The notes beneath the pieces are model-generated. The model had not been told where the DNA came from and ran no database searches. It worked only from the letters and a program-made list of their open reading frames with translations. The position numbers and the translations under genes are program-made. This document shows positions 11,801-31,493 of a stretch of DNA of 64,000 bases, in pieces; the first letter of the stretch is position 1, and each line of letters opens with the position of its first letter. Source of the DNA: Myxococcota bacterium. Its GTDB lineage: Bacteria > Myxococcota_A > SURF-8. Location of the stretch: assembly GCA_965140415.1 (NCBI GenBank), contig OZ223209.1, forward strand, positions 3,904,001 to 3,968,000, written 5' to 3'.

Positions 11801-13456
11801 ATGATGGCGACCCATTCGTACCCAAAATTCTTTCAGGATCACATTCTAACCAACGAAGAAGCGTTGAAACGGACCGTTATTTCGGGCCGAACCGTCGCCT
11901 CCGGTTTTGCGACCAGCGAACCGCATAAATTCTACGAAACCCTCTGGGAGCATATTCAGAAAGAGGATGTCGTCGATTTGACGATCAAACAAGCACTCTT
12001 TCTTGCCCCCCATAAGCTCTTGCTTGGCGATACGATGGAAAGCAAGGGCAAGTTCGAAAACTTGGCTCAAAGCGCCAGTTCTTCGATTATCTCTCGCATC
12101 GCCCAAAGCGCCAACCTCGTTACGAAGAAACTTGAAGGTCTAAAGCGCCTCGTAGGGCACTATGAAGAACTGAAAGAACGCCGCATCGTGTTCATGTCGC
12201 CTTTCATCGGTGCGACCAACAATATCGTCATTCCCGGCAACGCCATGACGCACGTGCTGTATCCTGATTATGTAGGCCGCAACACGACGCGCATGGGCAT
12301 CACCGACATGCAGTCCATCCACTTCCCCGACGCGGTGGATTCAATGGGTTACAATCCGGACGGCAAGCCGGTTGTCGATTGTTTCATCACGGTGCTGACG
12401 CCTCCCAATGAGGACGGTGAGATGAGCCTGGGACCGGCCAACGGTGCCAACATGGAAATCGTCGAGAAAGTGCTGCGCCAGAAAGATGCCGATCTACTGG
12501 TATACATCAACGGTCGCTATCCCTTCACACGTGGTTACGGAGACGCGCCGAACACGGTTAACGTAAACGATTTCGAAGGTCTGGCCAAAGCAGGACGTCT
12601 GTTCGTAGTCGAAGACGATTCCAAAATCCCCTGCATGCCCAAAGGCAGCTTCGACAATCCGGAACCGCGCGAAGAGAAAATCGCGGAGATCCTGGTCAAC
12701 CATATCGAATTGAATAAGCATTACAGCTACGGACGCGCGATTCAAGTCGGTTTCGGCGGTACCGGTGTATTGGCCATTCGCAACCTGAAAGATTCCGGCT
12801 GGCATGGACGCAGCTACACGGAAATGATGGAACCCTTCACGTTGGATCTGTTTGAAGCGGGCAAAATCGCCGGTTCACATTTCATTGAAAAAGACGGTCG
12901 CCGCACTCAGCTGGACGGCAAAATGGTTTGTACCTTCACGCTGGCAGAAGACGGAAGCGACTTCTACAAAAAACTGGACAACAATCCCAATATCATCATC
13001 TCCGCGGCCTCGCGCGTCGTCATTCCGGAAGGATTCTACGGCGGACTGGGAATCAACAACTGCCTCGGAGTGGATTTCAACGGCCATGTCGTCTCCGGTG
13101 GACGCGGCAAGAATCACCATTCCGGCGTCGGTGGCGGAGCCATGATCTTCCGTGGTCTGGGAAATGGCGGTCTTGGCTACCTCTGCCTCAAATCCACTCA
13201 CAAAGACATGGAAGGTCGCCTGCGCTCCTCGATCTTCCCCTTCCTGCCGCTGGGCACGCCAATCAGCCACATCGGTCCCGACCTGATGGGTGGTCGTTCC
13301 GGAGCCCGCTTGTTTATCGTTACCGAACACGGCGTGGCTCAGGTTTCCGGTCAAAGCCAGGCCAATCTGGTAAGGAATCTGATCGGTGTCGCCGATCCGC
13401 GCTTCCGCGATTACCTCAAGCACGAAGCATGGCAACACTACCGGATTAAGGTCTAA
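11801..13456 (+). CDS. Acetyl-CoA hydrolase/CoA-transferase family protein (4-hydroxybutyrate CoA-transferase-like, divergent)
   Basis: IQVGFG, YTEM (catalytic Glu position), NN.LGVDFNG, SGVGG, IVTEHGVA, ADPRFRD. Confidence 0.8.
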   Translation: MMATHSYPKFFQDHILTNEEALKRTVISGRTVASGFATSEPHKFYETLWEHIQKEDVVDLTIKQALFLAPHKLLLGDTMESKGKFENLAQSASSSIISRIAQSANLVTKKLEGLKRLVGHYEELKERRIVFMSPFIGATNNIVIPGNAMTHVLYPDYVGRNTTRMGITDMQSIHFPDAVDSMGYNPDGKPVVDCFITVLTPPNEDGEMSLGPANGANMEIVEKVLRQKDADLLVYINGRYPFTRGYGDAPNTVNVNDFEGLAKAGRLFVVEDDSKIPCMPKGSFDNPEPREEKIAEILVNHIELNKHYSYGRAIQVGFGGTGVLAIRNLKDSGWHGRSYTEMMEPFTLDLFEAGKIAGSHFIEKDGRRTQLDGKMVCTFTLAEDGSDFYKKLDNNPNIIISAASRVVIPEGFYGGLGINNCLGVDFNGHVVSGGRGKNHHSGVGGGAMIFRGLGNGGLGYLCLKSTHKDMEGRLRSSIFPFLPLGTPISHIGPDLMGGRSGARLFIVTEHGVAQVSGQSQANLVRNLIGVADPRFRDYLKHEAWQHYRIKV

Positions 13457-13500
13457 CAACCTCAGCAAGAATCAATCCGTATAAGATTGAGTTTCGGTTA

Positions 13501-13540
13501 TAGAAAAACGTCCTCGCCTTGATGCGGGGACGTTTTTCTA
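13501..13540. terminator. Bidirectional intrinsic terminator
   Basis: TAGAAAAACGTCCTCGC...GCGGGGACGTTTTTCTA between convergent genes. Confidence 0.85.
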
Positions 13541-13572
13541 TTGGGAAGCGATAGAAGATAAAATCTTCCGTT

Positions 13573-14037
13573 TCAATTCCGATCCAGAACGATCTGATCC
13601 ACCTTGATTTCGTCATGATCGATCAATAAGCGAGCGATAGAGGGAGGATGGGGAGCGCGTCCGGGTCCGGCACTGCCTGGATTTACGATCAGCACTCCAT
13701 TGTCCCGTAGTTCAGAGGGCTTGTGCGTATGCCCGTGAACCACTACGGAAATTTTGGCGGATCGAGGATCTAAATCAAGCGCCAGCAAATCGTGAAGAAC
13801 ATGAAAAGAGATTCCTTCGATTTCGAAGGTTTCCTCTTCCGGCAATCTCCTCGCCCAGGATTCTCTGTCCATATTTCCTCGCACCGCAGTCACCGGCGCT
13901 AGCGACTTCAACTGATCTAATATTTGCTGTGAACCGATATCGCCGGCATGGATGATATGGGCTACATCAGAAAAAATTCGCAGCACTTCCGGTCTTAACT
14001 GACCGTGAGTGTCTGAAATCAAGCCGATTACCGTCAT
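13573..14037 (-). CDS. YfcE-family metallophosphoesterase
   Basis: SDTHG, HAGD, GNMD, GHTH, NPGS. Confidence 0.92.
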   Translation of the reverse strand: MTVIGLISDTHGQLRPEVLRIFSDVAHIIHAGDIGSQQILDQLKSLAPVTAVRGNMDRESWARRLPEEETFEIEGISFHVLHDLLALDLDPRSAKISVVVHGHTHKPSELRDNGVLIVNPGSAGPGRAPHPPSIARLLIDHDEIKVDQIVLDRN

Positions 14038-14176
14038 GCAGTCTTCCTTTCAAGACCGTTTCTTCTCTTTTTTAAGAATATTCCTATTCCCCTTGGAATG
14101 TCAATTATTTACAGCAAGTTACAAGAATTGAGTCAAATCACGATGCGGATAGAAGAAATCAAGCCTCCGAATACTA

Positions 14177-15859
14177 TCAAGTGGCCATTACAACTTGATT
14201 GCGACCCGCCTTTTTCGCCTGATACAATGCATCGTCTGCTGCGGCAATAATAAGCTCCTCATGACCGTCATCAGGACTGTAAGTAGCCACACCGATACTA
14301 ACGGTCTGTATCATACCGAATTGACACAGCTTTGTGGACTCGCAAGCCCTGCGGACACGCTGTGCAATGTCATAGGCTCGATTCGCTTTGCAATCCGGTA
14401 GCAAAACGACCATTTCTTCACCACCATAGCGACAGGCGACATCTTCGCGACGGACGTTTTGTTTAACAAGATCCGCAATCCTTGCTAAAACCAAATCGCC
14501 AGCCTCGTGACCATGGGTGTCATTGACTTTTTTGAACAGGTCCAAATCGATCATCAGAAGCGAAAACGGCTGTTCCGTTTCTTTTGCTTCATCTATCAAC
14601 TGCTTGATTTTCTTGTCGAAAAAGCGCCTATTCATCAGTCCGGTAAGTGCGTCGAGGAAAGCAAGTTCTTCCAGAATCCTGTTTTTCCTCATGATTTCAT
14701 TAAACAGTTCCTTTACACGTAACTGACTCCCCAACCGAGCAAGCAATTCCTGTTTTGTAAAGGGTTTCGTAATAAAATCATTTGCACCGGACTGCAAACA
14801 GTTCAACATCGTAGCAGAATCATCCTGTCCGGTAAGCATGAGGATGGAAACACTATCGAACCTGGAATCCGAGCGGATTTCTCGTATCAGGTCCAAACCG
14901 GAGCCATCCGGTAAACTGAGATCGACGGAGATGATATCCGGCTTGCTGACAGTCAGATGGGCTTTGAACTCCTTGATTGTACTGTAGGATATTGTGGATA
15001 ATCCAACCTCGGAAGCAATCTTTGTAATAATAGAAGCGATGATCGTACTATCCTCAAGCACGACCAAACTGCCCCTGCTGTTTCCGGCAGTCAAGGGAAT
15101 GACATCGTGCAGAGCTTTTGCCAATAAGGCGCTCTCGACCGGCTTTGGCAACATATCCACGGCCCCTGCCCAGAATCCCTTCTTTGTTGTATCTTCACTG
15201 ATTGTAGCGGATTCGATGATCACCGGGATTCGACGGGTTCTTGGATTTGCCGCCAATTCCGTACATACCTCGTAACCGCTCATTCCCGGCATCTGCAAAT
15301 CTACAATCACGACGTGCGGCATTGTCTCCAGCACAAGATCAATTCCCTCGCGACCATCCGTAGCGGTATCGACATGAAAACCAAAGCCTTCGATCTGCTT
15401 TTTCAAGACAGACACGACGGTTTTACTGTCATCAATCAGCACGACTCGCGGCTTTTCGGAATTTCCCCTTTTCTTTTCTGCAACAAAGGGTTCGAAAACC
15501 TCGAAAATATCTTCTCTTGAGAACGGCTTGAATAGAACACCGTTGACGATCTCGATATCCCACTCCGCCTCCATATCCTTTTTTTCCAGGGATGTGGTAA
15601 CGATAACCGTGGGATTCAGATCCGGGCAATCTGCATTTAGATCGGAAATGATATCCGCTGGGGAATACTCCTCTGGGACACCGGGAAAAACCAGAAAGTC
15701 CGGGGCATACTCACTAAGTTCTTCCGGATCGTAAGAATCTCCTTCGAAAAAGAATAGTTGATACTCAGTATCTGATAGGAACTTGGACCATAGCGTCCGC
15801 ATTACATTGGAATGTTCGAAAACTCCAACTTTGAGTTTGGTAGATTGCTTCAAGTCCAT
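14177..15859 (-). CDS. Diguanylate cyclase, REC(degenerate)-REC-REC-GGDEF
   Basis: IDDS..DLQMP and LEDS..DLSLP receiver domains; DLDLFKKVND, RxxD I-site (RRED), GGEEM. Confidence 0.93.
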   Translation of the reverse strand: MDLKQSTKLKVGVFEHSNVMRTLWSKFLSDTEYQLFFFEGDSYDPEELSEYAPDFLVFPGVPEEYSPADIISDLNADCPDLNPTVIVTTSLEKKDMEAEWDIEIVNGVLFKPFSREDIFEVFEPFVAEKKRGNSEKPRVVLIDDSKTVVSVLKKQIEGFGFHVDTATDGREGIDLVLETMPHVVIVDLQMPGMSGYEVCTELAANPRTRRIPVIIESATISEDTTKKGFWAGAVDMLPKPVESALLAKALHDVIPLTAGNSRGSLVVLEDSTIIASIITKIASEVGLSTISYSTIKEFKAHLTVSKPDIISVDLSLPDGSGLDLIREIRSDSRFDSVSILMLTGQDDSATMLNCLQSGANDFITKPFTKQELLARLGSQLRVKELFNEIMRKNRILEELAFLDALTGLMNRRFFDKKIKQLIDEAKETEQPFSLLMIDLDLFKKVNDTHGHEAGDLVLARIADLVKQNVRREDVACRYGGEEMVVLLPDCKANRAYDIAQRVRRACESTKLCQFGMIQTVSIGVATYSPDDGHEELIIAAADDALYQAKKAGRNQVVMAT

Positions 15860-16115
15860 CTTTTTCTGCCCCGCGATTTAGCTGAGAATCAATTGGTACG
15901 TTCTTATATTGATGTCAAAAGGAACCGAACAACCCCGCTAGTAGAATAGCACATTGGAAAGCGATGTTTAAATTTTTATTGTTTCAGCTATTTCGAATCA
16001 TTAACAAAACATGGTTTCATAATTCTGAGATAGCTTCGTGTTGTAATCAGAAAATTGCTATGTTACGATTCTGATTGATCCGAATCTGAAAAGACTAGCT
16101 TCGAAGGTAATTGCC

Positions 16116-16940
16116 ATGCCGCCAATAAAACGAATCCATCTCTTAGCTGCCATGATGCTGTTGCTGTCTATAAACCATGTAACCTGCCAATCAGACGACA
16201 GTGCAACCATGGATGCCGACATAGACCAAATAGAAATTGGCGATGGAGAACAGTCGGAAGAAGAGAACTTTAACGTTGCCTGCCTGAACCCGGACACGGA
16301 AGGAGCTACTTCCCGCTGCTTACAAGCGACTAAAACTTCCGAATATTATGTAGAACAAAGCCTGAAATATTTTGACACGTTGGACATTGAAGCCGACCCG
16401 GAAAGCATTCCAAACTACTCGGAGTTGGTTGCTCGCTGGGAATGGCCTCCCTGGCTGAAACTGACCGGCTTCGACCGGGACACAATGAATTCCACAGCAA
16501 CCATCCTACGACAGTTCGACCCGTCTACCGTGCCGGAAAGAGAATGCCGTGCTTTTCAGGTTCAACCCTTTGGCCGTTGTTATATCGTATTTGAATATGA
16601 GGGGCGCCCCTGCCCGATATATGAAGAGTTCACCTTCAACGATCAAGGCGAAATGACCTTCATCGAAGCCTGGTCCGATCAACTAGGTATGCTACCGATG
16701 GACAAAGACCTGGACCGATGGGCGCAAGGAGAAAACGTGCCACGGCTCTCGACCAGACTTCCCGGATTGGGAAACGCTACGGGACGCCTGGATTTAGAAA
16801 GTCAGTGGATGAAAACCGCAGAATCCAACGACCCGGACATCGCCGACTTCGCCATGCGGGCGCGCAATCAATGGAAATACTGGATGGACGAACTCGAAGC
16901 TTCCGGAGATGATTTATATGAACGCGGCTGCGGCTGGTGA
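16116..16940 (+). CDS. Hypothetical exported protein, probably a lipoprotein
   Basis: Signal peptide ending in Cys, acidic linker, Trp/Cys-rich globular domain. Confidence 0.7.
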   Translation: MPPIKRIHLLAAMMLLLSINHVTCQSDDSATMDADIDQIEIGDGEQSEEENFNVACLNPDTEGATSRCLQATKTSEYYVEQSLKYFDTLDIEADPESIPNYSELVARWEWPPWLKLTGFDRDTMNSTATILRQFDPSTVPERECRAFQVQPFGRCYIVFEYEGRPCPIYEEFTFNDQGEMTFIEAWSDQLGMLPMDKDLDRWAQGENVPRLSTRLPGLGNATGRLDLESQWMKTAESNDPDIADFAMRARNQWKYWMDELEASGDDLYERGCGW

Positions 16941-17591: not shown

Positions 17592-19676
17592 TCAACCATA
17601 GAAAAAGCCATCGTGATCTATAAAAAGAGATAAATCCATCACATTCAATAGGAAAAGCATTCCCGTAACCAGCAAACCGATGGCTCCGATGAACATTAGG
17701 CTGCTGTAAATCTTATAGCGTCGCGTAAGCCCGGTTTCCGTCGCACCGGCGACAACAAACGGTAATCGACCCACTTCCGCTTTCTGAATCACTGCACTTG
17801 GTGTTTCAGCATGAAGCTTTTGTTTTTCTTCTAAAACGGACTCGATTGCCTTCGCTTCCATGGCTGAACGCGCACTTTCCCATTCCTGTTCGTCGATAAC
17901 GCCATTACCATCTGCATCGTACTCGCGCAGCAGTTTTTCATGATCCTGTTTCAGTTCTCGAATCTTTTCCGCCGTACGCTGACTAAGGCTTGATAATTCC
18001 TGTTCGACACGCTGGGCCGATCCCAATACGTAAATCGGAGCGAATTCAGGAATGGTCTCTTCGATAACCTTCTCATCGGGACTGAAATGCACGTTCAACG
18101 AACCGGACAATCCGATATCACCACGATAGGTTTCCGAATGAGAAGGGAGAATACGCGCCCCCAGCGGATTCACCAAAACCTTGCCGGTCTCGTCTTTCAC
18201 TAAAAACGGCGCGGAACCGCTGTTCATGTCGGTTTGCAATACCCATTCCGTCTTGTTGCCGCTGTGCTTTTTCTTATAGCGACGCATCCTGTAATACACA
18301 CAGGCAATGTTGGAAATCGGCGCTTGCAGGTTACAGGCCCGCTCGCAGATTCCCTTGACTTCCACCATCCCCATGGCTAGGGAGCGGATTTTGGATGTAG
18401 GCGTGTTGTCCATCCAACGTTTTAAACTGAGAAAACGAAACGCGCTGTAAAACAGACCGGCGGAAATCAGGAAAAACAACACTCCCCGATTGATTCCGAC
18501 ATTCAGCAACCACATTTGAACTTTGGGGTTGAAATGTGCGGCAACGATCAACGCGAAAACCAGTAACGAAATTGCAATCGGGACCAGCGAAACTTTGAAC
18601 TCTAAACTGATTCCCCCCGCATTCTGTATCGGCTCTGGTGGTGACGGTAAAAAAGAGGCCGCCGTCATCGTATCTTCCGGTTTGTAACTCGGTTCGTCGA
18701 TCCCTTCGGAAGCGATTGCTTGAGAGGACATTCCGGTGTTGACTTGCGCCGCTGTCGCAATTCCTACCACGGCAGCAACCGCTCCACCTGCACCGGAATC
18801 TCCCATTACCGCTTTTTCCGTTTCAGGCGCAGTGGAGGCAGTATTTGTTTGAGTCGTACCCGGCTTGATATCCTGACCTTTGCGCGTCAGGTTTTGGCGA
18901 TACAATTCTCCTAAATAATATCCGTAACGTGATAAGCTATTCAGATTCGATTCCAAACTACCGGCAATATCCCCTTGAGTCAGACGACAACCCGGCATCT
19001 GAAACAATCCGAAATCCATTTCCAACGCGAACCACGATGACAAGCCTTTCACCAGCCGCACCACCCGATCCATATTTTGCCTGGCACTGGGAGTTGCGTG
19101 TTTCCCCAAACCGGTTGCGTTGAATTTTCCAGGTATGAACCGGAACGGTCCAATGGGAGCTTCATCGGATTGGGTAAACGATTCAGGCAGGATATACACA
19201 TCCAGAACCGGATTCGCGCTGAAAATGGTCTTATACTTTTCCTTGGCGTCCAATCCGACCAGTTCATTGGTCCGGTTGGACATGCGACGCATCAGTTTAC
19301 TAAGCAATCGTCCGTCGAAATCGGCCAGAACACCAAACGCCCTGCCCTTTTTCGGAAAAGAAACACGTTCCGATTTGGTTTCGAAAACAAGCGTTTCCCC
19401 CTGCATGGAAACCGCTTTTACCATCTGCGCTTTTGGAATACCCGGACGCGCGGGAACAACAGCCCTTTGGAATCCACCCTGCCCTAGTATTCCAGCCGCC
19501 GTGGAAAGCTCATTCGCTGTACCCTTCGCCAAATATCCCAACCCGGCTCCCATCAACGAAAGACGAGTCTGATAGGCATCCATCGAAGCCTGTTTGACAA
19601 GTTCTTCCACCAATGCAGACAGTTTCTGTGGATCGACAATCTGTTTTCGTACGAACAGGATGTGTTCTTCGCTCAT
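17592..19676 (-). CDS. GIDE-domain membrane protein with EF-hand loop and a long N-terminal extension
   Basis: NTPTSKIRSLAMGMVEVKG (GIDE-like), DADGNGVIDEQEW EF-hand, flanking TMs; ATG at 19676 preferred to TTG at 19757. Confidence 0.75.
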   Translation of the reverse strand: MSEEHILFVRKQIVDPQKLSALVEELVKQASMDAYQTRLSLMGAGLGYLAKGTANELSTAAGILGQGGFQRAVVPARPGIPKAQMVKAVSMQGETLVFETKSERVSFPKKGRAFGVLADFDGRLLSKLMRRMSNRTNELVGLDAKEKYKTIFSANPVLDVYILPESFTQSDEAPIGPFRFIPGKFNATGLGKHATPSARQNMDRVVRLVKGLSSWFALEMDFGLFQMPGCRLTQGDIAGSLESNLNSLSRYGYYLGELYRQNLTRKGQDIKPGTTQTNTASTAPETEKAVMGDSGAGGAVAAVVGIATAAQVNTGMSSQAIASEGIDEPSYKPEDTMTAASFLPSPPEPIQNAGGISLEFKVSLVPIAISLLVFALIVAAHFNPKVQMWLLNVGINRGVLFFLISAGLFYSAFRFLSLKRWMDNTPTSKIRSLAMGMVEVKGICERACNLQAPISNIACVYYRMRRYKKKHSGNKTEWVLQTDMNSGSAPFLVKDETGKVLVNPLGARILPSHSETYRGDIGLSGSLNVHFSPDEKVIEETIPEFAPIYVLGSAQRVEQELSSLSQRTAEKIRELKQDHEKLLREYDADGNGVIDEQEWESARSAMEAKAIESVLEEKQKLHAETPSAVIQKAEVGRLPFVVAGATETGLTRRYKIYSSLMFIGAIGLLVTGMLFLLNVMDLSLFIDHDGFFYG

Positions 19677-19952
19677 CTTTACCCCAATATAAAAACCACT
19701 TGATGGAATTTCCACATTCAGTATATGCATTTTATCCGGTTTTGTCACTTTTCTCAAGTCAAGCTCCAGCCTTCAACCCAATCTAGGCGCATGGCCCATC
19801 AACACCGCCTTTTCCGTCGAACTATAGGGTATCTTTAAAAATTCTCTTGTCGGATGTACTGCGTATTGATACTCTAATGGATATCATTGGATTTTCTCTA
19901 CGCGCCGAAGAAGCATCAAAACGGCAAAACAGGGGTTGGCGGTGAAATCATT

Positions 19953-21779: not shown

Positions 21780-22106
21780 TTATTTGAGGATACTACGTAG
21801 AGCAACTTCCAAATCGGGAAGGTCATTTACAATAATGTTCCAGACTTCGATAAGATCCACCCCCATGTAATCGTGAACCAACACATCTCGAAGCCCGGCT
21901 ATCCTACGCCAAGGAACATTTGCATAATGATCCTTCAACTCTAAGGAAATTTTCTTCGTCGCCTCTCCGATAATCTCGAAGTTTCGGATTACGCCATCTT
22001 GGATCAGTAAACTCGATTCAAAGGCGTCCTTTCCGTCTATCGTATATTCTTTGATCTTGGCGATAGAATCAAGAATGTGGTGCAGGTAAAGAAGGTCGGT
22101 TTTCAT
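21780..22106 (-). CDS. hepT: HepT-like HEPN ribonuclease toxin (DUF86)
   Basis: RNFEIIGEA and RX4HXY (RDVLVHDY). Confidence 0.92.
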   Translation of the reverse strand: MKTDLLYLHHILDSIAKIKEYTIDGKDAFESSLLIQDGVIRNFEIIGEATKKISLELKDHYANVPWRRIAGLRDVLVHDYMGVDLIEVWNIIVNDLPDLEVALRSILK

Positions 22107-22393
22107 AACGGAACAGATTCCCGCAGCACTTGCTCTCGAATGCTTTCGTGGAGAGCGCGTTCGTTTACGACATCGATTTTCCGTCCCAATAGATCTTCCA
22201 AAGCTTGCATGAAGGCGATGCGGTCCAGCAGGCTGCGATCTAGGTCCATTTCTACAAGGATGTCAATATCGCTGTCCGGTCGATCCTCCCCACGCACGGC
22301 AGAACCAAACAGCCGCAAGTTTCTTACACCGTGAGCTTTAGCCAAACGGTTGATATCAGTAATGTATGCTTTGATACGATCGTGGGTTGTCAT
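22103..22393 (-). CDS. mntA: MntA-like minimal nucleotidyltransferase antitoxin
   Basis: FGS-X10-DID motif; ATG at 22393 after GAGGA; 4-nt overlap with hepT. Confidence 0.92.
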   Translation of the reverse strand: MTTHDRIKAYITDINRLAKAHGVRNLRLFGSAVRGEDRPDSDIDILVEMDLDRSLLDRIAFMQALEDLLGRKIDVVNERALHESIREQVLRESVPL

Positions 22394-22445
22394 TTCACAA
22401 TCCTCTTCATCATGATATCTATTATGCCGAGAATAAACGTAAAAA

Positions 22446-23225
22446 TCAAGATTTACAGCTCTTTCGCCCCTTCCCGCAATCGGGACAATCATCGTTTTTA
22501 GCCCGAGACAAATCCAAAATCGAATAGCGCCCGGACCAGATATCGAAACTGAACAATTCTGGATGTCGCTTCGATTCATCTTCCAACAGGATTTTCAATA
22601 CTTCTGTGACTTGCACGGCGCTAGCAAGAGCAACCGCCGTGCTTAAAACGCCGACTTCCAGAACGGAGTTCGGACCGGTTTCTTCCGGAGTCTGGGGAAA
22701 GATACAGCGTAAACAGGGAGTATTTCCGGTAAGGATGGAACAGACGGAGCCGGTGGTTCCCAATATTCCGGCATATACCCAGGGAATACCCAACCGTATG
22801 CATACACGATTGATCACATAATAACGCACCCCAAACGAATCACTTCCATCCAGTACGACATGCGACCCGGAAAGAAACTCCTCGGCGTTATTTTCATTAA
22901 GGAAGATCTCGTGAGATTCGATGTGACAGCTAGAATTGATTTTGCCAAGCCGCTCTGCCAAAGTAGCCGCTTTCGCTCGCTTTTCCTTTGCATCTTCTTC
23001 GGTGAACAGCGTTTGACGAGGTAAATTGGAAAGCGACACACAATCGCCATCCACCAATTGCAGTTCTCCAATTCCCCCTCGACAAAGTCTCTCTGCGCCC
23101 AGCGATCCCAATGCTCCGCAACCGACAATCGTAATCCTCGAACGTGCCAGTTTTTCCTGACCGACTTCTCCAAACTGCTCCAATAGAATATGGCGGCTGT
23201 ATCGCTCTCGATTTTGTGAATCCAT
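22446..23225 (-). CDS. ThiF/MoeB/HesA family adenylyltransferase
   Basis: RYSRH, GCGALG, SNLPRQ, CLRC and CPDC zinc sites. Confidence 0.93.
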   Translation of the reverse strand: MDSQNRERYSRHILLEQFGEVGQEKLARSRITIVGCGALGSLGAERLCRGGIGELQLVDGDCVSLSNLPRQTLFTEEDAKEKRAKAATLAERLGKINSSCHIESHEIFLNENNAEEFLSGSHVVLDGSDSFGVRYYVINRVCIRLGIPWVYAGILGTTGSVCSILTGNTPCLRCIFPQTPEETGPNSVLEVGVLSTAVALASAVQVTEVLKILLEDESKRHPELFSFDIWSGRYSILDLSRAKNDDCPDCGKGRKSCKS

Positions 23226-23422: not shown

Positions 23423-23739
23423 GTAGTGCCTTTTCCTAAATTGCTGAAAGTACTATTTCAGCCGGGTGGGATCGCTATTTGGCAGAATGTCAGAGGGATG
23501 CGAATTGGATACGAACAAGGCACGCTTGTATATTTATGCACTTTTGTTCGCATTTTCAAGTAAGGCATTCAATTGAGGGTTACCGGAATCGATGGCAAAT
23601 GGCCAGATGATTCCACGTTTCTTTATTCTTGCCAGTTCTCGAAGCGGCAGGTTTACACTTCGCATAAATGGGAATAAAGAAACCGATTCGCAAAAAATAA
23701 CGAAACGCAACAGCACGAAAGACTGGGAACGAAAGCGGC

Positions 23740-26700
23740 ATGCAGGGACCATTCAAACGAACGATCAACAAAGCGTCCGATCTCCGAGCGCAAAAGCAAT
23801 CGGGTAAGAATTCCGCTCAAAGCACCATAACAGAAGCGCTTCACGAAGCGTTTGTGCAGGCTGGGTTCAAGCCGTTGGATAATCGATTGATGGATGATGG
23901 CGGCAAGGAAGTGCAGAACGAGTGCATTCTGCGCGCCCGTTCGACGAGCGACGTACAACGGATCGTCACTATCGCGCATTCCATGTCTTTCGGTGTGATG
24001 CCGATTGGGTCGCTGACCAGCGCCATTGGCGCTTTCGAAACGCGCTCGGCAGCACGCCTGCATGGCTTGAACGGCTTTGTCGGTATTCAAATCCAACCTT
24101 CCGGACAACTGGAACCGCAAAACGCCCCCCCCTCCGAATTCGAACGCCTGATCCCCAGCGATCCGGATCTGCGCGAAAATATGGAAGTCTTCCGCAGCGT
24201 CAATTCGGAAGCCAGTCACCAGGTGCGCGTATGGGCGGGCCTCACACCGGGGCGTATCAACGAGGCGCTCATCGATTTACTGGGGCCGGGGCATTCCGTT
24301 TACCTGGATCTGACGACATTCAATCAGGCCCAGATCGGAGCCGTTGTGGCCAATGGAAGCGAAGGTCCGGTGCGCGCCAACGCACGCTTCAATCTCGTTT
24401 CCGCCACGCTTGTCGATGGCGCAGGGCAGTTACATCAGTTAACTCATGAACAAGCCAAAGCACAAGTCGGCCAGGGAGGAACGGCGGGAATCCTATCGGA
24501 AATCACGTTGGAAGTGATTTTTGAGGGAAGTAACGAATTCGGGTTCTTCATGCCATTGCCGGGAAGAATCGGTAAAGAATACACCGGCATGGTCAACCAT
24601 CTGCCGCATGTCATGGCGACACTCGATCCTTTCAGCCAGGCGCATTTCATCCAAGATTCGAAAGGGAAAAAACTCGTTGCCAAACGTGGCCCGATTTTAT
24701 TGAAAGGCTTTGAAATCATTACCCGCTCGGAACTGCGCAGCACCTATGGAAGTTTACGCGAAGACAGCGAAGAACGCGGGCGCATCGGAAGCCTTTTGGA
24801 AAACATGCGCGACAGCCACTGCCATGTCGGTCTGATGATCAATTGCACCACGGATATCACCGAAGAAGAGATGCTGACGTACCTGGAAGCGCTTTACGAA
24901 GATCGGCAGGATGCAGACAACCTCTTCTGTGTCATTCGAAACCTGCAACGCGAGCAGGAGGTTTACCAAAGCAAGGAAGGCTTGTACGAAACGGAAGAGG
25001 ACATTGTGTACTTCCGCCCCAGCGAAATCAAAGCGCTAAAACGAATGCGCGAAGCGATCCCGGAAATGACGCGTGCCTCCAAACTTCGGGGCTTCACCAG
25101 TTCTACGGATGTGAACTGTCGTCTGACTTCAGAATCGGAGCAAGAACGCGAGCGCGCCTATAAAGCCATTATGGAAACCTATTGGATGTATATCAACGAC
25201 CTGCGGGATCGTGATTTCCGGGTATACATCTATGGTCATCTTCATCCCGGCGACAGGGAACAGGCAACCGGCGGCGGCATCGACCTGCACGTGCGTGGCT
25301 CCTACTTTCTTGAAGGAGAAGACGAGGATCGCCAGAAGCGCGCGCCGGAAGCCTGGGTGTATCTGAAGGATCGCAAAAAGCAATTACTTAACGAACTCCA
25401 CGGCTTGCACGGTCAATTCGGAATCTGTATCGAGGCCGGAGAAAAACGGATATCCTCCGACTACGCCAGGTGGCTGTCCAATATCGAACCGGAAGCCGCT
25501 GAAGCATTTTATCGCACCAATGAACTCTATGGCGCACCAACCTTGGCCGCGCGCAGTCCGATCAAGCTACACGCTCATCCGCCACGAATCAAAGAAGGCA
25601 TCCTGAATCTCTTTGCACCGGACCCGAATATCGACGAACGGGCTTCTCTACTTATTCGCCTGCAACAATCGATCCTGTTGTGGTGCCAGCATTCTCATCG
25701 CAGTCCGGAATCGGCCAGGGTGATTGCGGAAACTCATGGCCTGCTTCGAGATTGGCTGGCGCTCGATTCCGAGGCACGGATATTCTTTACCGAATCGCCG
25801 GAAAAGGCCCTGCATACCTCGTTGATGGGCCTGGTCAATTTCCGCAAGGATGGAACTTTCGTCGATTTGAGAACGCAACGCTGGGAAGAGCTAACGTATG
25901 AAACGAAACAGCATTGCCAGGTTGTAATCTGCGATTCACCAGCCCAACTGGTCAATCCCGATTTTAAAGACTGTCACACGATTCTGATTTCCGAAAATGC
26001 CGAACCGATCTGCAAAGCGGATCTCGACCGGGCTAGCATCGCGATTTTATCCGCTCAGGCAATTGGCGCTGGCGCGGAGTTGGGAATCATTGTTACATCC
26101 CGAAACGTAATTCAACATGCCCGCATGATTGCGCTACGCAACAATCCGGGCTATGCCCATGCCCTTGTCGAGTTGGACGATCGCCCGCATGAAACGATCG
26201 AAACGCCACGTCTGCCCGTGATCGCCGAACTGGGCTGCCTGCTCGCTGAAAAGCTGGGACAATCCTGCAACTTGTCTCATGAACAAGCGACAGAAATGCT
26301 GGAATGGCAGAACAAGCTGATCACGTTTAATCCCGGTCCCAGCCAGATCAACAGGAAAATCGTTGAGAAAGCCGTCGCTCTGCATAAGCAAACTTTATTG
26401 TTGCACAGCGATACAGAGGCGCGCATCAAAGCCATTGCCGGAGTAGAGCGGCAACTGCGCGACTACTTTAGCATACCGAACAATCATCACATTTTCTTTA
26501 CCGGATCGGCGACGCAGGCCATGGAACAGATCGTTGAAAGCCTGCCGCTCGACTACGCCGTGGTCGGTGTCAAAGGCGCTTTCGGAGAACGCATGGCGAC
26601 TGTCGCCCGGCGCTACGGGCAAGGCATCATGAAGTCCGTTCACTTGCGCTGGGGCGAAGGAGAAAACAGCCAGGTCAAGTCCATTGCGTCTGAAATGTTC

Positions 26701-27636
26701 AGTAAGCTTCCAGCCAACCCGCGTAAGCGCAAGCAAAGCCGCGTCGGCTTCTTTATTACCGCCCACGAAACCTCCACCGCCGTTCAGACCCAACAAAAAC
26801 CCTTTCTCGCGGAATTGCAGTTTCTGGCGCAGAAAAACGGGCTGAAGCACCGACCCTTCTGCATCGTGGATGGCACATCGGAACTCGGATTCACGAAGCC
26901 GGACTTTCAGGATATCGATGTCTATTTCGGCTCCGTGCAGAAATTTCTGGGTTGTCCGGCTGGCCTGGGCGTAATGATCGTCTCGGATAGAGCCTTGCGC
27001 TACTCTATAGAACAGCAAAAAGCACAACAGAACATCAAGTGCATGCAGGGTTATCGCTGCTTCCCACAGTTGCAGCAGCAACGGGAACAGGGCTTTATAT
27101 CCAACCTGCGCGGCGTGCTCGAATTGGGTGTCGCACTGGCGGACTACCAGCAGCGCGGCGGCATTCGCACCCTGCAAAAGGAAACCCAGAAAAAACTCTC
27201 GATACTTATGGATGCCGTTTCGAATACGACTCACCTTGCGCCGGTTATTGTATCTCATAAAGATCGCTCGGGTGTGATGGCGCATCTTGTCGGCGTAGAT
27301 ATTGAAGTGAGCAGAATCGTAGAACGCCTTGCCGATCACGCGATCATCGGCAACGGCTATGGCCCTTACAAAGGAGAAACCCTGCGTTTGTACTGCTCTC
27401 CCAATCTTTCGTTGAAACAGGTGCACAGTACAACGCGCCTGCTGGACCGGGCGCTTTCGGAAATGGAGTCGGATGACGAGATTCTGACCGTCAAGCCGCC
27501 ACGCAAAAGCCGCAATCTGGACAAGGAATGGTTACGGGCGCAAGGACAGATCTCCGTGGACAGCCTTCGTTCCCTGCTGCCGGAACGGCTGCTGTGGAGA
27601 ATCAGGCGGGAATTGGGACGATTCAGCAGAAGCTAA
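23740..27636 (+). CDS. Fusion: FAD-linked oxidoreductase (VAO/PCMH, D-2-hydroxyacid dehydrogenase-like) + Lys-less SerC-like domain + class-V aminotransferase (SerC-like)
   Basis: PIGSLTS, QIGAVVAN, GQGGTAGILSEITL, YGH..DLH; then SHRS, IFFTES, ETP; then FNPGPSQ, IFFTGSAT, DGTS, SVQK, GYG..LR. Confidence 0.85.
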   Translation: MQGPFKRTINKASDLRAQKQSGKNSAQSTITEALHEAFVQAGFKPLDNRLMDDGGKEVQNECILRARSTSDVQRIVTIAHSMSFGVMPIGSLTSAIGAFETRSAARLHGLNGFVGIQIQPSGQLEPQNAPPSEFERLIPSDPDLRENMEVFRSVNSEASHQVRVWAGLTPGRINEALIDLLGPGHSVYLDLTTFNQAQIGAVVANGSEGPVRANARFNLVSATLVDGAGQLHQLTHEQAKAQVGQGGTAGILSEITLEVIFEGSNEFGFFMPLPGRIGKEYTGMVNHLPHVMATLDPFSQAHFIQDSKGKKLVAKRGPILLKGFEIITRSELRSTYGSLREDSEERGRIGSLLENMRDSHCHVGLMINCTTDITEEEMLTYLEALYEDRQDADNLFCVIRNLQREQEVYQSKEGLYETEEDIVYFRPSEIKALKRMREAIPEMTRASKLRGFTSSTDVNCRLTSESEQERERAYKAIMETYWMYINDLRDRDFRVYIYGHLHPGDREQATGGGIDLHVRGSYFLEGEDEDRQKRAPEAWVYLKDRKKQLLNELHGLHGQFGICIEAGEKRISSDYARWLSNIEPEAAEAFYRTNELYGAPTLAARSPIKLHAHPPRIKEGILNLFAPDPNIDERASLLIRLQQSILLWCQHSHRSPESARVIAETHGLLRDWLALDSEARIFFTESPEKALHTSLMGLVNFRKDGTFVDLRTQRWEELTYETKQHCQVVICDSPAQLVNPDFKDCHTILISENAEPICKADLDRASIAILSAQAIGAGAELGIIVTSRNVIQHARMIALRNNPGYAHALVELDDRPHETIETPRLPVIAELGCLLAEKLGQSCNLSHEQATEMLEWQNKLITFNPGPSQINRKIVEKAVALHKQTLLLHSDTEARIKAIAGVERQLRDYFSIPNNHHIFFTGSATQAMEQIVESLPLDYAVVGVKGAFGERMATVARRYGQGIMKSVHLRWGEGENSQVKSIASEMFSKLPANPRKRKQSRVGFFITAHETSTAVQTQQKPFLAELQFLAQKNGLKHRPFCIVDGTSELGFTKPDFQDIDVYFGSVQKFLGCPAGLGVMIVSDRALRYSIEQQKAQQNIKCMQGYRCFPQLQQQREQGFISNLRGVLELGVALADYQQRGGIRTLQKETQKKLSILMDAVSNTTHLAPVIVSHKDRSGVMAHLVGVDIEVSRIVERLADHAIIGNGYGPYKGETLRLYCSPNLSLKQVHSTTRLLDRALSEMESDDEILTVKPPRKSRNLDKEWLRAQGQISVDSLRSLLPERLLWRIRRELGRFSRS

Positions 27637-27797
27637 TCTTGACCTGGAAAAAACAATCTTACAGAGGACATTGACAAGCGATCCAATGCCGGTAAACATA
27701 GCGGCTGCGCAAACAAACTACTTTGTTATTATCGATTGAACCGTAACACACCAGCCGTATACACGGCTTTCAGTTCGTTCATGGAAAGGATGTACCG

Positions 27798-30700
27798 TTG
27801 AAACCGAAAACCTTCGAACAAGTTGCAGAAGAAATAAAAGGCAAGCCCATTCTGGTGGCGAACCGAGGCATTCCCGCCCGGCGTGTGCTGCGCTCCATCC
27901 GCGAGGTCTTCAAAGCGATACCCGTTATGACCGCCACGGATGTCGACCGCACTTCTCCAGCCACCAGCGGCGCACAGGAACTGATCCTGCTCGGCGAAAA
28001 TTCCCGCGCCTACCTCGATCTGGACCGGATCATCAAAAAGGCCAAGGACAAGGGGGTCATCGGCATCCATCCCGGCTGGGGATTTGCTGCGGAAGACGAC
28101 ACCTTCCCGGAAAAATGCGAAAAAGCGGGCATCGTCTTTATCGGCTCGGACGCCCGAACCATGCGCTTGTTAGGCAACAAGGTTTTGGTGCGCGGTATCG
28201 CCCGAGACTTGGGCATTCCGGTCGTTCCCGGTTCCGAAGGAGCCGTTACGATTGCAGAAGCCCGCAAAGAAGCCAGGAAAATCGGCTTCCCCATTTTATT
28301 GAAGGCGGAAGCGGGCGGCGGTGGTCGCGGCATTTACGAAGTCTACGACCAATCCCAGTTGGAAGAAGCATTCGCCAAAGCCTCTACCATGGCACAGGCC
28401 TCCTTCGGCAATCCCCGCTTGTTCGTTGAGAAATTGCTTACAAATATCCGGCACATCGAAATCCAGGTGGTGGCGGACCGCTTCGGCCATGTCATCGCTT
28501 TGGACGAACGTGACTGCACGGTGCAGCGCAACCATCAGAAGTTGATCGAAATCACGCCATCGCCTTGGCCCGTCATGACGGAAAGTCTGCGTAAAAAGTT
28601 GAAGCGCTGGGCCGAGAAGCTTATCAAGTCCGTGGGGTATCACTCGCTGGCGACTGTTGAATATCTGGTAGACCAACATGGCGAACCGTATCTGATCGAA
28701 GTGAACACCCGCCTGCAAGTAGAGCATGGCATTACGGAATGCCGCTACGGCATCGATCTGGCGGAAGAACAGATCGCCATCGCCTTCGGGGCGCGGCTTA
28801 GACTGACTCGGGACACCTGCCCGATGAACCACGCGTTGCAAGTGCGTATCAACTGCGAAGATCCGCAAAATGGCTTCAGCCCGAATGCTGGCGTCATCAC
28901 CCGTTATATTTCGCCCGGCGGCCAGGGCGTGCGCATCGATTCCTGCGTTACGGCAGGCTATGAATTCCCCAGCGACTACGACTCAGCAGCATCTCTGCTG
29001 ATCGCTTATGGCGCGAGTTGGAACAAGGTGCTGGGCATTATGGATCGCGCATTGGGCGAATACATCATTCGCGGCGTAAAAACCACGATTCCTTTCCACA
29101 AGATGATCATCGCCAATCCGCAGTTTCGCTCGGGCCAGTACAGCACCTCTTTCCTGTCAGAATCGCCGGAATTGATGAATTACGTCGATCCGATACCAGC
29201 ACCACTGCGCAGTTCTCGTTTAGTCGCGGAGATTTCCGCCAAGGGCTACAATCCCCATCTACAACTGGGAGAGTATCGCGGCGTTCAGGACAAACGCGTG
29301 GGACGCTTTTCGCCAATCCTGCCGGAAATCGATATCAAGCAGGAGCCTTCTCCCTACCCTCGCTGGGATCGCAAAGGCTTGCTCGATGTGCTGCGGGATT
29401 CCGACTACGTTCACTTTACCGACACCACAACTCGCGACATCACCCAGTCCAACAGCGGCAATCGCTTTCGACTGGCCGAGGATCGCCTGATCGGTCCTTA
29501 CCTGGACAATTGCTCGTTCATGTCGTTGGAAAACGGCGGCGGAGCGCATTTCCACGTCGCCATGCTGGCGAACATGACCTATCCTTTTTCCGAAGCCGAG
29601 GAATGGAACCGCTTCGCGCCGCAAACACCCAAGCAAATTCTGATCCGTTCCACCAACGTGCTGGGATATCGACCGCAACCCCCGAATCTCATGGATAAAA
29701 CCGGGGAAATGATCTGTGAACAGTACGACATCGTACGCTGCTTCGACTTTCTGAACCACGTCGAAAATATGGAGTCGTTTGCCCGGGTTGTGATGAATTC
29801 CCCCCGCAATACCTTCGAGCCTGCAATTTCCCTGTCGTATTCGGAGGCGTTTACGGTGCGCCATTACGTCAAGGTCGCCACGGAAATCGTGACGATGTGC
29901 GCTAAAGCCGCCGGGGTCGGTCCGAAAAAGACGTCGCGCATGATTATCCTGGGGTTGAAGGATATGGCGGGCGTCTGCCCTCCGCGCTTCATCGGAGAAC
30001 TGGTTTCCGAACTGCGCAAAAAGTTCCCGGATCTGGTGCTGCACTATCACCGCCATTACACCGACGGCCTGTTCGTTCCCGCCTACGGAGCCGCCGCCAA
30101 ATCCGGAGCCAAGATTCTGGACACCGGAATCGGCGCCGCCGTGCGCTGGTACGGCCAGGGCGAGGTGCTTTCCACCGCCGCCTATTTGGAAGGCGAACTC
30201 GGTCTGAAAACGAAACTGAACACGGAAATGATCCGTACCACCGGTTTCGTGCTGAAGCAGATCATGCCTTATTACGACCGCTACACCGCCCCTTATTTCC
30301 AGGGCATCGATTACGACGTCGTCGAGCACGGCATGCCGGGAGGAGCCACCTCGTCTTCACAGGAAGGCGCGCTCAAGCAGGGATACATTCACCTGCTGCC
30401 GCACATGTTGAAGTTTCTTGCAGGTACACGACGCATCGTGAAGTACCATGATGTGACACCCGGCTCGCAGATCACCTGGAACACCGCATTTCTGGCTGTA
30501 ACCGGCGCCTACAAGCGCGGAGGAGAAAAGGCGGTGAACGATCTCTTAAACGTGCTGCAAACCGTAGTGGAAACTCCCGAGAAGAAACTGTCTTCGGAAA
30601 TCAAGCGAGCGCGGCTGAAACTCTATGCAGACTGTAACGACGCCTTCCGCGATCTTCTGCTGGGTAAATTCGGCAAACTGCCGCTCGGCTTTCCCAAAGA

Positions 30701-31493
30701 CTGGGTATATGAAAGCGCCTTCGGCAAGAAGTATCGCGAGGCGCTGGCCCAACGTACCGAAATCTCTCCCTTGCAGCAACTGACCGATATCGACCTGGAA
30801 AAGGAACGGCAGGCGCTGCAAAGCGCCATCAAGCGTGAACCCAGCGAAGAAGAATTCGTGATGTACCTCAACCATCCCGGTGATGCGCTGAAAACCATTT
30901 CCTTTAAGAGTGACTACGGCGATCCCAACCAATTGCCATTGGATGTCTGGTTCGAAGGAATCGAAATAGGAGAAACGCTGGTCTTCCGGGACAACTTCGA
31001 CAAGCCGCACGAGATGGTCATTCTGGACTTTCAGGAACCAGATGAACGCGGCATGAGTATCGTGCGTTATACCCTGGATTCGGAATTCTTTTCGTACCAG
31101 GTTCGTGTTGCGGAGCCGACCGGCGCAGCGAGTGCAACCGCACTTGAATTGGCCGATCCAGATAATCCCTATCACATCGGCGCACCCAGCAACGGCGATC
31201 TGTGGGTGATGCACGTCCGACCGGGAGATCGAGTCAAGCAGAACGAGGAAATCTGCAACATCTCGATTATGAAACAGGAAAAGGCGATACTCGCCCCGAT
31301 GGACGGCACCGTCAAGCGCGTATTGAAAACCGCCGATTACACCAAAGATCGCAAGATGGTTGGCGTTAAAGCCGGAGAATTGCTTGTGGAATTGGGAGAG
31401 CCGGTGGATGCTTGCCCGACCTGCCGGGCGGAAATCGTCGCCAGCGATTTCCAGTTCTGCCCACATTGCGGCCAAAAACTGGCAAAAGCTTGA
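27798..31493 (+). CDS. pyc: Pyruvate carboxylase (single chain, with C-terminal zinc ribbon)
   Basis: ANRG, HPGWGFAAE, GGGGRG, RLQVEH; carboxyltransferase RD..QS, KDMAG, HxH, MPGG; biotinyl IMKQE; CPTC...CPHC. Confidence 0.92.
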   Translation: MKPKTFEQVAEEIKGKPILVANRGIPARRVLRSIREVFKAIPVMTATDVDRTSPATSGAQELILLGENSRAYLDLDRIIKKAKDKGVIGIHPGWGFAAEDDTFPEKCEKAGIVFIGSDARTMRLLGNKVLVRGIARDLGIPVVPGSEGAVTIAEARKEARKIGFPILLKAEAGGGGRGIYEVYDQSQLEEAFAKASTMAQASFGNPRLFVEKLLTNIRHIEIQVVADRFGHVIALDERDCTVQRNHQKLIEITPSPWPVMTESLRKKLKRWAEKLIKSVGYHSLATVEYLVDQHGEPYLIEVNTRLQVEHGITECRYGIDLAEEQIAIAFGARLRLTRDTCPMNHALQVRINCEDPQNGFSPNAGVITRYISPGGQGVRIDSCVTAGYEFPSDYDSAASLLIAYGASWNKVLGIMDRALGEYIIRGVKTTIPFHKMIIANPQFRSGQYSTSFLSESPELMNYVDPIPAPLRSSRLVAEISAKGYNPHLQLGEYRGVQDKRVGRFSPILPEIDIKQEPSPYPRWDRKGLLDVLRDSDYVHFTDTTTRDITQSNSGNRFRLAEDRLIGPYLDNCSFMSLENGGGAHFHVAMLANMTYPFSEAEEWNRFAPQTPKQILIRSTNVLGYRPQPPNLMDKTGEMICEQYDIVRCFDFLNHVENMESFARVVMNSPRNTFEPAISLSYSEAFTVRHYVKVATEIVTMCAKAAGVGPKKTSRMIILGLKDMAGVCPPRFIGELVSELRKKFPDLVLHYHRHYTDGLFVPAYGAAAKSGAKILDTGIGAAVRWYGQGEVLSTAAYLEGELGLKTKLNTEMIRTTGFVLKQIMPYYDRYTAPYFQGIDYDVVEHGMPGGATSSSQEGALKQGYIHLLPHMLKFLAGTRRIVKYHDVTPGSQITWNTAFLAVTGAYKRGGEKAVNDLLNVLQTVVETPEKKLSSEIKRARLKLYADCNDAFRDLLLGKFGKLPLGFPKDWVYESAFGKKYREALAQRTEISPLQQLTDIDLEKERQALQSAIKREPSEEEFVMYLNHPGDALKTISFKSDYGDPNQLPLDVWFEGIEIGETLVFRDNFDKPHEMVILDFQEPDERGMSIVRYTLDSEFFSYQVRVAEPTGAASATALELADPDNPYHIGAPSNGDLWVMHVRPGDRVKQNEEICNISIMKQEKAILAPMDGTVKRVLKTADYTKDRKMVGVKAGELLVELGEPVDACPTCRAEIVASDFQFCPHCGQKLAKA

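Follow-up and report, generated by a model that had tools for sequence, protein, structure and literature searches.

Introduction

To our knowledge, the phosphorylated serine pathway always begins with an NAD-dependent enzyme, SerA/PHGDH. The SerA reaction is thermodynamically uphill and is pulled by the later steps or by transhydrogenase side reactions. The aminotransferase SerC (phosphoserine aminotransferase, PSAT) of Escherichia coli serves both the serine and the pyridoxal 5'-phosphate (PLP) pathways, and a flavin enzyme of the latter, PdxR, exists in Sinorhizobium. Here we analyse a gene at positions 23740–27636 of a 64 000-nucleotide stretch of DNA from a Myxococcota bacterium (contig OZ223209.1, positions 3,904,001 to 3,968,000; 'the window' below means this whole stretch). 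Its product very probably combines three modules in one chain: a flavin adenine dinucleotide (FAD) module, a dead PSAT-like domain and a live aminotransferase. We tentatively propose that proteins of this family stand in for SerA and SerC in some bacteria of the Candidate Phyla Radiation (CPR).

The closest described systems concern the modules one by one. In the description of human D-2-hydroxyglutarate dehydrogenase (D-2-HGDH), R386 binds the C1 carboxylate of the substrate, the Zn ligands are H434, H441 and E475, the base is proposed to be H476, and Y432 and N443 touch the distal carboxylate; R386, H434, H441, E475 and H476 are given there as conserved also in D-lactate dehydrogenase and GlcD (PMC7801405). 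For the aminotransferase AtPSAT1, the phosphate of phosphoserine is described as bound by the pair H396 and R397 in the subunit that bears PLP and by H110* and R111* in the SHR loop of the other subunit, while R403 binds the carboxylate (PMC6043687). Pairs with one lysine-less partner have been described in serine palmitoyltransferase (SPT), where SPT1 lacks the PLP lysine and the Coccolithovirus enzyme joins both partners in one polypeptide (PMC6148460).

A 1298-residue open reading frame conserved at full length

The open reading frame (ORF) and its modules are as follows.

23740..27636, plus strand: whole ORF (P0001), 1298 residues and the stop codon, no internal stop
23857..25584, plus strand: N-module, residues ~40–615, resembling VAO/PCMH-type FAD-dependent D-2-hydroxyacid dehydrogenases (Pfam, Foldseek, hhalign, ESM-Atlas)
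25597..26310, plus strand: middle domain, residues ~620–857, a truncated, lysine-less PSAT-like pseudo-domain (hhalign, profile matches, alignment A7)
26311..27459, plus strand: C-domain, residues 858–1240, a predicted live class-V aminotransferase like that of PDB entry 3ffr (Pfam, NCBIfam, PDB 3ffr)

An initial annotation of the window had read a flavin-dependent hydroxy acid dehydrogenase in frame with SerC-like domains, with no stop between them, and had raised the possibility of an artefact joining two genes. The reading was confirmed. The ORF is real and an assembly artefact is excluded: a 73-kb Logan contig, assembled independently and possibly from the source sample, shows no difference over 23500–27900, and contigs of a second sample from the same study cover 29 of 30 bins (all except 25264–25410) with no indel at either domain junction. 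The full-length frame is uninterrupted in seven genome loci, two in Myxococcota and five in Peribacteria/Peregrinibacteria metagenome-assembled genomes (MAGs). The only indel in the second sample is a 4-nucleotide insertion (CGAT) behind 23761, at codon 8 within the unconserved N-terminus. Since homology to relatives also begins only at about residue 30, the true start may lie downstream of the annotated ATG at 23740.

Among 5.8 billion proteins searched, 14 relatives with 32–55% identity were found, from Myxococcota MAGs and from Peregrinibacteria/Peribacteria of the CPR. Thirteen of them are 1226–1350 residues long and the fourteenth is an 829-residue piece; all named family members are annotated as 'hypothetical protein'. 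The family alignment is conserved end to end, including the supposed linker with its invariant WCQxSHRSPE and HETIETP..IAELG. When a profile of residues 1–857 was run against 1.84 billion representatives, the 118 matches comprised full-length forms, 'long forms' of 1346–1571 residues, stand-alone N-modules of 580–690 residues, and proteins of ~355–373 residues in which residues ~140–270 match profile positions ~720–850. Both of the ~360-residue proteins scanned with Pfam belong to Aminotran_5. Several long forms (e.g. P0026, P0029, P0034) show the order YGH...SHR...ETP...S.QK...GYG as well.

An AlphaFold2 model of residues 40–1239 (1200 residues, 49-sequence alignment) reached a mean predicted local distance difference test (pLDDT) of 93.4 and a predicted template-modelling score of 0.93, the five models ranging from 91.2 to 93.4 in pLDDT. 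A search of the PDB with the full-family profile gave nothing for residues 1–850 except faint PSAT matches from ~647 onward. The architecture was not known to have been described when the initial annotation was made, and we likewise found neither the fusion nor an FAD-dependent 3-phosphoglycerate dehydrogenase described in the full-text literature searched, a scope outside of which lie subscription journals and supplements.

A predicted one-sided aminotransferase pseudo-dimer

The C-domain matches Aminotran_5 with 39.2 bits (cutoff 21.5). Its best solved relative is 3ffr, a 'SerC' from structural genomics, with an E-value of 3.5e-18 for the single sequence (residues 858–1236), 3.9e-36 with a profile, and a template-modelling (TM) score of 0.89; among the NCBIfam matches, PSAT models score highest. 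The initial annotation had spoken of SerC-like domains and had overlooked that one of the two is a truncated pseudo-domain without the lysine. Comparison of the middle domain (600–857) with the C-domain by hhalign (probability 85.3%, E 5.9e-6, 144 columns) places SAQA opposite SVQK, so that the lysine column holds an alanine, and reveals a deletion of ~75 residues of the PLP core in the middle domain. Of the 14 homologs in alignment A1, only P0009 (locus L007) has a lysine there. The motifs in question are:

25693..25701, plus strand: S652-H653-R654 (SHR motif), invariant; S652 and H653 in the predicted interface
26200..26208, plus strand: E821-T822-P823, invariant, aligned with the 'QTP(N)' loop of stand-alone PSAT-like enzymes (alignment A7)
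26932..26943, plus strand: S1065-V-Q1067-K1068, Schiff-base lysine motif; S, Q and K invariant, aligned with SVQK of 3ffr
27355..27387, plus strand: G1206-Y1207-G1208 and R1216 (position of the carboxylate-binding Arg by alignment to 3ffr), invariant

In the stand-alone relatives from CPR genomes (358–376 residues), one chain carries NPGPSQ, EISHRS, a GSAT-type motif, GAF, ETSTGV, SVQK, QTPxTPN and GYG...FR. The fusion divides this set between its two domains (alignment A7). The C-domain retains NPGPSQ, GSAT, GAFG, ETST, DGTS, SVQK, GYG and R1216; LHSDTEA and NLRG occupy its SHRS and TPN positions. In the middle domain only SHRS and ETP are left, and GAF, ETSTGV and the entire small domain have been lost. 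Because this split matches the trans and cis roles of the AtPSAT1 residues, the dead domain appears to have kept the contribution of the partner subunit and the live domain that of the catalytic subunit.

Folded as separate chains with PLP, the middle domain and the C-domain gave a docking score of 0.92, whereas none of three controls exceeded 0.01; 58 of 80 solved complexes and two of 110 mismatched pairs reach the mark set for the tool, although our run differed from this calibration set in using its own alignments and a riding ligand. At least 89% of contacts are shared between the docking runs, and the pLDDT of the partner is at least 86. Similarity to solved PSAT dimers, the very point under test, may account for the pass. 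The confidently predicted interface comprises C649–H653, G778–E780, N802–H807 and I820–V827 on the side of the middle domain and G866–I870, T921–Q926, S1065, Q1067, P1073–G1075 and S1121–G1125 on that of the C-domain; the E821-T822-P823 loop contacts P1073–G1075 in the complex model. According to these models, the two domains would form a pseudo-dimer with a single active site, in which the dead domain completes the site of the live one.

A divergent flavin dehydrogenase module

The flavoprotein motifs quoted in the initial annotation (DVQRIV..PIGSLTS, VWAG, QIGAVVAN, LVDGAG, GQGGTAGILSEITL and YGH...DLH) are present in the translation, as is the divergent 'IEAGE', which reads IEAGEK and thus has GEK for the GEH of the family. 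Of the two Pfam domains assumed there, FAD_binding_4 is found at a marginal 26.8 bits (cutoff 26.4; 33–35 bits in the relatives P0024 and P0027), while the FAD-oxidase_C cap gives no match in Pfam, NCBIfam or the sequences of the PDB. The assignment as a dehydrogenase is nevertheless supported by the fold. Foldseek comparison of the AlphaFold2 model with the PDB retrieved class-V aminotransferases, led by 3ffr, and a set of FAD D-lactate dehydrogenases, among them 7qh2_C (Acetobacterium woodii Ldh), 8jde (mouse LDHD) and 3pm9, the latter set with TM scores (normalized to the target) of ~0.70 over ~570 columns. The look-alikes of the N-module in the ESM-Atlas are FAD_binding_4 clusters (scores 0.92–0.94), and hhalign against the canonical YdiJ-like enzyme of the host aligned the FAD subdomain only (probability 68%, E 4.8e-5).

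Thirteen positions are invariant in 49 sequences with 19–55% identity to the window protein, stand-alone forms included: D52, T192, G209, G247, R437, D457, Y498, G499, H500, H517, R519, E568 and K569. They include two candidate catalytic elements.

25231..25296, plus strand: Y498-G499-H500 ... H517-V-R519 hairpin, putative metal/substrate site, invariant in 49 and in 23 sequences
25438..25446, plus strand: G567-E568-K569 ('GEK' for the family 'GEH'), invariant

The spacings Y-x-H and H-x-(N/R) match those of Y432/H434 and H441/N443 in D-2-HGDH. Judged from motif order and predicted secondary structure, H500, H517, E568 and R437 may correspond to H434, H441, E475 and R386. The catalytic constellation would then be kept with three departures, which are the longer His–His hairpin (17 residues compared with seven), Lys in place of the base His, and Arg in place of Asn443. 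R519, at the site equivalent to N443 that contacts the distal acid group, would suit a phosphate.

No SerA(+ACT) found in CPR genomes carrying the fusion

Among 301 genomes of the class to which the CPR carriers belong, 40 match the family profile. Eight carry the fusion (G003, G004, G005 and G217, and as long forms G050, G074, G085 and G226), four the N-module only, and 28 only a stand-alone aminotransferase like the C-domain. In three of four scanned stand-alone loci, the aminotransferase gene is located directly downstream of a gene for a SerA-type protein of 405–421 residues (2-Hacid_dh and ACT domains), and in one of the three a HAD phosphatase gene then follows. A SerA(+ACT) query gave full-length matches (at least 379 bits) in 24 of the 301 genomes and fragments in G200. 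Stand-alone carriers account for 23 of the full-length matches and a further one of them for fragments, which makes 24/28; 15 SerA/aminotransferase pairs are adjacent, as read from the match coordinates. A SerB-like HAD gene lies in the same cluster in all five stand-alone carriers tested, four times just upstream of serA and in G190 downstream of the aminotransferase. By this genomic context the stand-alone relatives are probably PSATs.

SerA(+ACT) was found in none of the eight fusion carriers, where the best matches (110.8–152.6 bits) are frames of 324–362 residues without ACT, a type common in the class, and in none of the four genomes with the N-module only. The difference between 24/28 and 0/8 gives p = 1.6e-5 in a Fisher test, which treats related genomes as if they were independent. 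For a PSAT-like site that goes without SerA only where it is fused to a flavin D-2-hydroxyacid dehydrogenase, the simplest explanation is that the flavin module supplies 3-phosphohydroxypyruvate.

In a clade of Peribacteria and Peregrinibacteria MAGs (L003 and L007, ~2900–16900), the gene is co-directional between pta-ackA-pflB-pflA and genes for AMP phosphorylase, ribose-1,5-bisphosphate isomerase and a deaminase. The salvage route of AMP phosphorylase and ribose-1,5-bisphosphate isomerase ends in 3-phosphoglycerate (3-PG). For Peribacter genomes, serine synthesis has been described as possible, and FMN, possibly also FAD, as a product the cells can make (PMC4736985).

Two further observations were made in this class. 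Many genomes contain a compact serB/serA/serC cluster (loci L031, L032, L033; genomes G087, G107, G240, G296). Its 3ffr-like enzyme fails all NCBIfam PSAT cutoffs (117–145 bits in the stand-alone CPR aminotransferases, against a cutoff of 401.65), and automatic annotation may therefore under-call serine prototrophy in the class. Stand-alone N-modules of 603–633 residues (L027–L030, in G294, G188, G064 and G075) are encoded beside a divergently transcribed regulator of the TrmB family, that of L030 also beside FTR1 and a suf cluster for Fe-S assembly; these neighbours are uninformative as to the substrate.

Other features of the gene and the window

27460..27633, plus strand: basic C-terminal tail, residues 1241–1298, recognized by its Lys and Arg content

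Of the last 45 residues, 11–18 are Lys or Arg in P0001–P0004 (the window protein, two proteins from Myxococcota MAGs, and P0004), compared with 4–7 in six remoter homologs (P0006, P0008, P0009, P0011, P0012, P0014), CPR members included. Among the homologs checked, a basic tail of ~45–60 residues is thus restricted to the clade of the window protein. The tail may anchor the protein to a membrane or to a partner for electron transfer.

Scans for promoters and terminators gave counts no higher than in shuffled sequences, and Rfam and tRNA scans of the window gave no match. Among the public runs, no RNA sample was listed as holding the stretch. Directly downstream (27798–31493, plus strand), a single-chain protein of 1231 residues resembling pyruvate carboxylase is encoded, with biotin carboxylase, carboxyltransferase-type and biotinyl domains and a zinc ribbon at its end. 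On the minus strand, two overlapping ORFs of 108 and 158 residues (21780–22579) resemble by eye a HEPN (DUF86)/nucleotidyltransferase toxin–antitoxin pair. A 721-residue protein (17592–19757, minus strand) combines a match to GIDE (E3-ligase-associated) with an EF-hand, which is an unusual pairing for a bacterium.

Discussion

We tentatively favour the reading that the fusion is an FAD-dependent 3-phosphoglycerate dehydrogenase joined to a PSAT, which replaces SerA and SerC in the CPR carriers and converts 3-PG to phosphoserine. Module 1 would convert an anionic D-2-hydroxy acid to its 2-oxo acid by oxidation at the C2 hydroxyl, in an FAD-dependent, metal-assisted reaction as expected for the LDHD/D-2-HGDH/GlcD group. 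Modules 2 and 3 would be two copies of the 3ffr-like PSAT fold packed as an intramolecular pseudo-dimer. Module 3 would carry PLP on K1068 and all cis elements. Module 2, from which the lysine, the small domain and the PLP core are gone, would have kept only the loops that cross the dimer, SHR and ETP, of which the former would bind the substrate phosphate in trans, as in PSAT, and the latter is what we take to be the cofactor-phosphate loop. One complete active site and one dead site would result. D-3-phosphoglycerate would be oxidized to 3-phosphohydroxypyruvate by the flavin and then aminated at PLP to O-phospho-L-serine, with an amino donor such as glutamate, the net effect being an NAD-independent substitute for SerA plus SerC. 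The analysis shows the ORF and its conservation, the folds, the complementary split of the motifs and the association of stand-alone relatives with serA and serB; we infer the substrate, the direction, the binding of flavin and PLP, and channelling. The broader scenario, in which a flavin-linked, NAD-independent entry into serine synthesis displaced serA-serC in Peregrinibacteria/Peribacteria and spread to a few Myxococcota, is possible and put forward still more cautiously.

A number of results weigh against this proposal. At the level of the enzyme, the cap subdomain matches no sequence model, the two histidines of the hairpin are separated by 17 residues compared with seven in D-2-HGDH, and Lys replaces the catalytic His of the dehydrogenase family: the host canonical enzyme has SGEHG, while the GEHG His is absent from the fusion family, where K569 is invariant in the 49 sequences. 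The aminotransferase misses all PSAT equivalog cutoffs (serC_1, 58.8 compared with 443.6 bits; PRK05355, 49 compared with 253), a fact overlooked when it was first called SerC-like. In place of the phosphate-binding GHR of canonical PSAT (and of the host SerC_1) it carries GYG, as do 3ffr and the stand-alone CPR enzymes, and R654 is absent from the listed interface residues.

At the level of the genomes, a SerB-like phosphatase was found in none of ten CPR fusion carriers with a protein query that detected it in five of five controls. TIGR00338 gave only matches of 17.6–42.5 bits inside frames of 731–949 residues (two-query controls 5/5), which we read as probably unrelated large HAD-domain proteins. 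The serA and serB context of the stand-alone relatives is hence missing around the fusion, and the phosphorylated pathway would lack a recognized last step in these carriers. No electron transfer flavoprotein (ETF) was found in the ten CPR carriers, which are fermenters, so that re-oxidation of the flavin is unexplained. In the four genomes with the N-module only, the module has the same invariant residues, yet neither SerA nor a PSAT-like enzyme was found, so that 3-PG need not be its substrate. Taken alone, the mutual exclusivity between the fusion and the stand-alone enzyme is not significant (expected overlap 0.74 genomes), and no conserved neighbours are shared between clades in the eight loci compared.

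The Myxococcota host adds to these objections. Its genome (5.98 Mb in one contig, 93.7% complete) contains two serC genes (454.5 and 408 bits) and a serA-type gene (402.6 bits), contrary to the absence for which the initial annotation had suggested looking. The fusion gene occurs in three of ten genomes of the host's class and in none of the five other genomes of its family, three of which are listed as 94% complete and one of these with 6% contamination. Given these genes, the patchy distribution and the lack of conserved neighbours, the fusion is accessory in the Myxococcota host, and 'replacement' does not apply there. Of the three options raised initially, a flavin SerA substitute with PSAT is the best supported in the CPR carriers and does not hold as a replacement in the host.

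The missing phosphatase (0/10 in fusion carriers compared with 5/5 in carriers of serB/serA/serC) would be explained by a non-phosphorylated route, in which the flavin module oxidizes D-glycerate to hydroxypyruvate and the aminotransferase forms L-serine directly, with no need for a phosphatase. Serine:pyruvate and serine:glyoxylate aminotransferases are indeed among the class-V relatives. We consider this route rather unlikely, as the invariant S652, H653 and R654 and the basic R519 point to a strongly anionic distal group and the closest stand-alone relatives are PSATs by operon context. It is likewise unlikely that the same architecture serves another pair of reactions, from D-malate, D-lactate, D-2-hydroxyglutarate (D-2-HG) or a phosphono- or sulfo-hydroxy acid to aspartate, alanine, glutamate or an amino-phosphonate. 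Such a function would fit the stand-alone N-modules with identical invariant residues in genomes without a PSAT-like enzyme, the NCBIfam matches to PhnW/AepZ (45.7 bits, whole protein) and BhcA (27.0 bits for the C-domain alone, 57.7–77.5 bits for stand-alone relatives), the neighbours related to pyruvate or oxaloacetate (pyruvate carboxylase in the window, pfl/pta/ackA in L003 and L007), and the many 2-hydroxy acids that mouse LDHD accepts, judged from the titles of PDB entries. What it does not predict is an absence of SerA specific to fusion carriers (0/8 compared with 24/28), and PSAT models are the top NCBIfam matches.

The two other options of the initial annotation are disfavoured. A PdxR-SerC fusion, combining an FAD-dependent 4-phosphoerythronate dehydrogenase with the SerC step of deoxyxylulose 5-phosphate (DXP)-dependent PLP synthesis, would be in keeping with the DXP-dependent PdxJ of the host (174 bits), but the host also encodes the DXP-independent PdxS (G000:C1:2090030-2090725 and 4808966-4809583 for the two), the fusion gene was missing from all five other genomes of the host's family, and PdxJ was found in none of the ten CPR fusion carriers; we regard this function as highly improbable. 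Coupling of SerA to D-2-HGDH has been described in bacteria (PMC9504171), and a flavin module returning D-2-HG made by SerA to 2-oxoglutarate beside PSAT would agree with the fold group, which includes D-2-HGDH, and with the serA-type gene of the host. This, too, is most improbable: SerA(+ACT) was found in none of the eight CPR carriers, so that D-2-HG would have no source there, a canonical YdiJ-like FAD enzyme with GEHG is already encoded by the host (whose genome has six FAD_binding_4 proteins besides the fusion), and K401 and N443 of D-2-HGDH are unmatched, the latter replaced by R519. Finally, the replacement of the catalytic His by Lys, the marginal Pfam score (26.8 compared with 26.4 bits) and the lack of an identified electron acceptor could be taken to mean that the flavin-like module is a regulatory, sensor or scaffolding domain of the aminotransferase. 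Invariance of the putative catalytic and metal positions and of the FAD-loop glycines across 49 sequences at 19–55% identity, stand-alone forms included, together with the confidently modelled LDHD-like fold, makes this very unlikely.

If the proposed conversion of 3-PG to phosphoserine is true, the flavin-linked SerA substitute would add a new enzyme activity to central metabolism. With a flavin, the strongly unfavourable NAD-linked equilibrium of the SerA reaction would be avoided, and the fusion could hand the labile 3-phosphohydroxypyruvate straight to the PLP site. It would also change the scoring of serine prototrophy in CPR genomes, where missing serA and serC are usually taken as a sign of auxotrophy. 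Whatever the substrate, the protein offers a clean natural test of what one half of a fold-type-I PLP dimer must supply in trans to the other, with a dead copy whittled down to the loops that cross the interface; it is comparable to SPT1/SPT2 in this respect, but in an aminotransferase.

Comparison with known systems

Each module comes from a known superfamily; what is unusual is the proposed flavin enzyme in the place of SerA and the single-chain, one-sided aminotransferase pseudo-dimer. With LDHD (8jde), Ldh (7qh2_C) and human D-2-HGDH, the fusion shares the two-subdomain fold as modelled (TM ~0.70) and the FAD-loop motifs, and its Arg, Tyr-x-His, His and Glu constellation would parallel R386, Y432/H434, H441 and E475. 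It differs from this group by the lack of any sequence-level match to FAD-oxidase_C or to a solved structure, by the 17-residue His spacing, Lys for His476 and Arg for Asn443, by the attached aminotransferase domains, and in that ETF was not found in the CPR carriers.

The 3ffr-type 'SerC' (Cytophaga hutchinsonii CHU_0995) and the stand-alone CPR enzymes have NPGPSQ, GSAT, GAF, ETST, SVQK and GYG...R in common with the fusion (identity 22–27%). These presumably homodimeric enzymes carry SHRS and QTPN in the same chain, whereas the fusion has both in a separate dead domain. Canonical SerC/PSAT (E. coli, AtPSAT1) shares the class-V fold, the Schiff-base Lys, the carboxylate Arg and the SHR loop across the dimer interface; the fusion departs from it in score (58.8 compared with 443.6 bits), in GYG for GHR, and in being a predicted single-chain pseudo-dimer instead of a homodimer.

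SPT1/SPT2 and the Coccolithovirus SPT follow the same design principle as the middle domain plus C-domain, a fold-type-I pair with one lysine-less partner. They are alpha-oxoamine synthases, which catalyse a different reaction, have a full-length dead partner and carry no flavin module, while the dead partner in the fusion is internally deleted and without the small domain. The arrangement of a flavin enzyme upstream of SerC finds its parallel in PdxR, a member of the same broad superfamily that replaces the NAD-dependent PdxB upstream of SerC, there as a separate protein.

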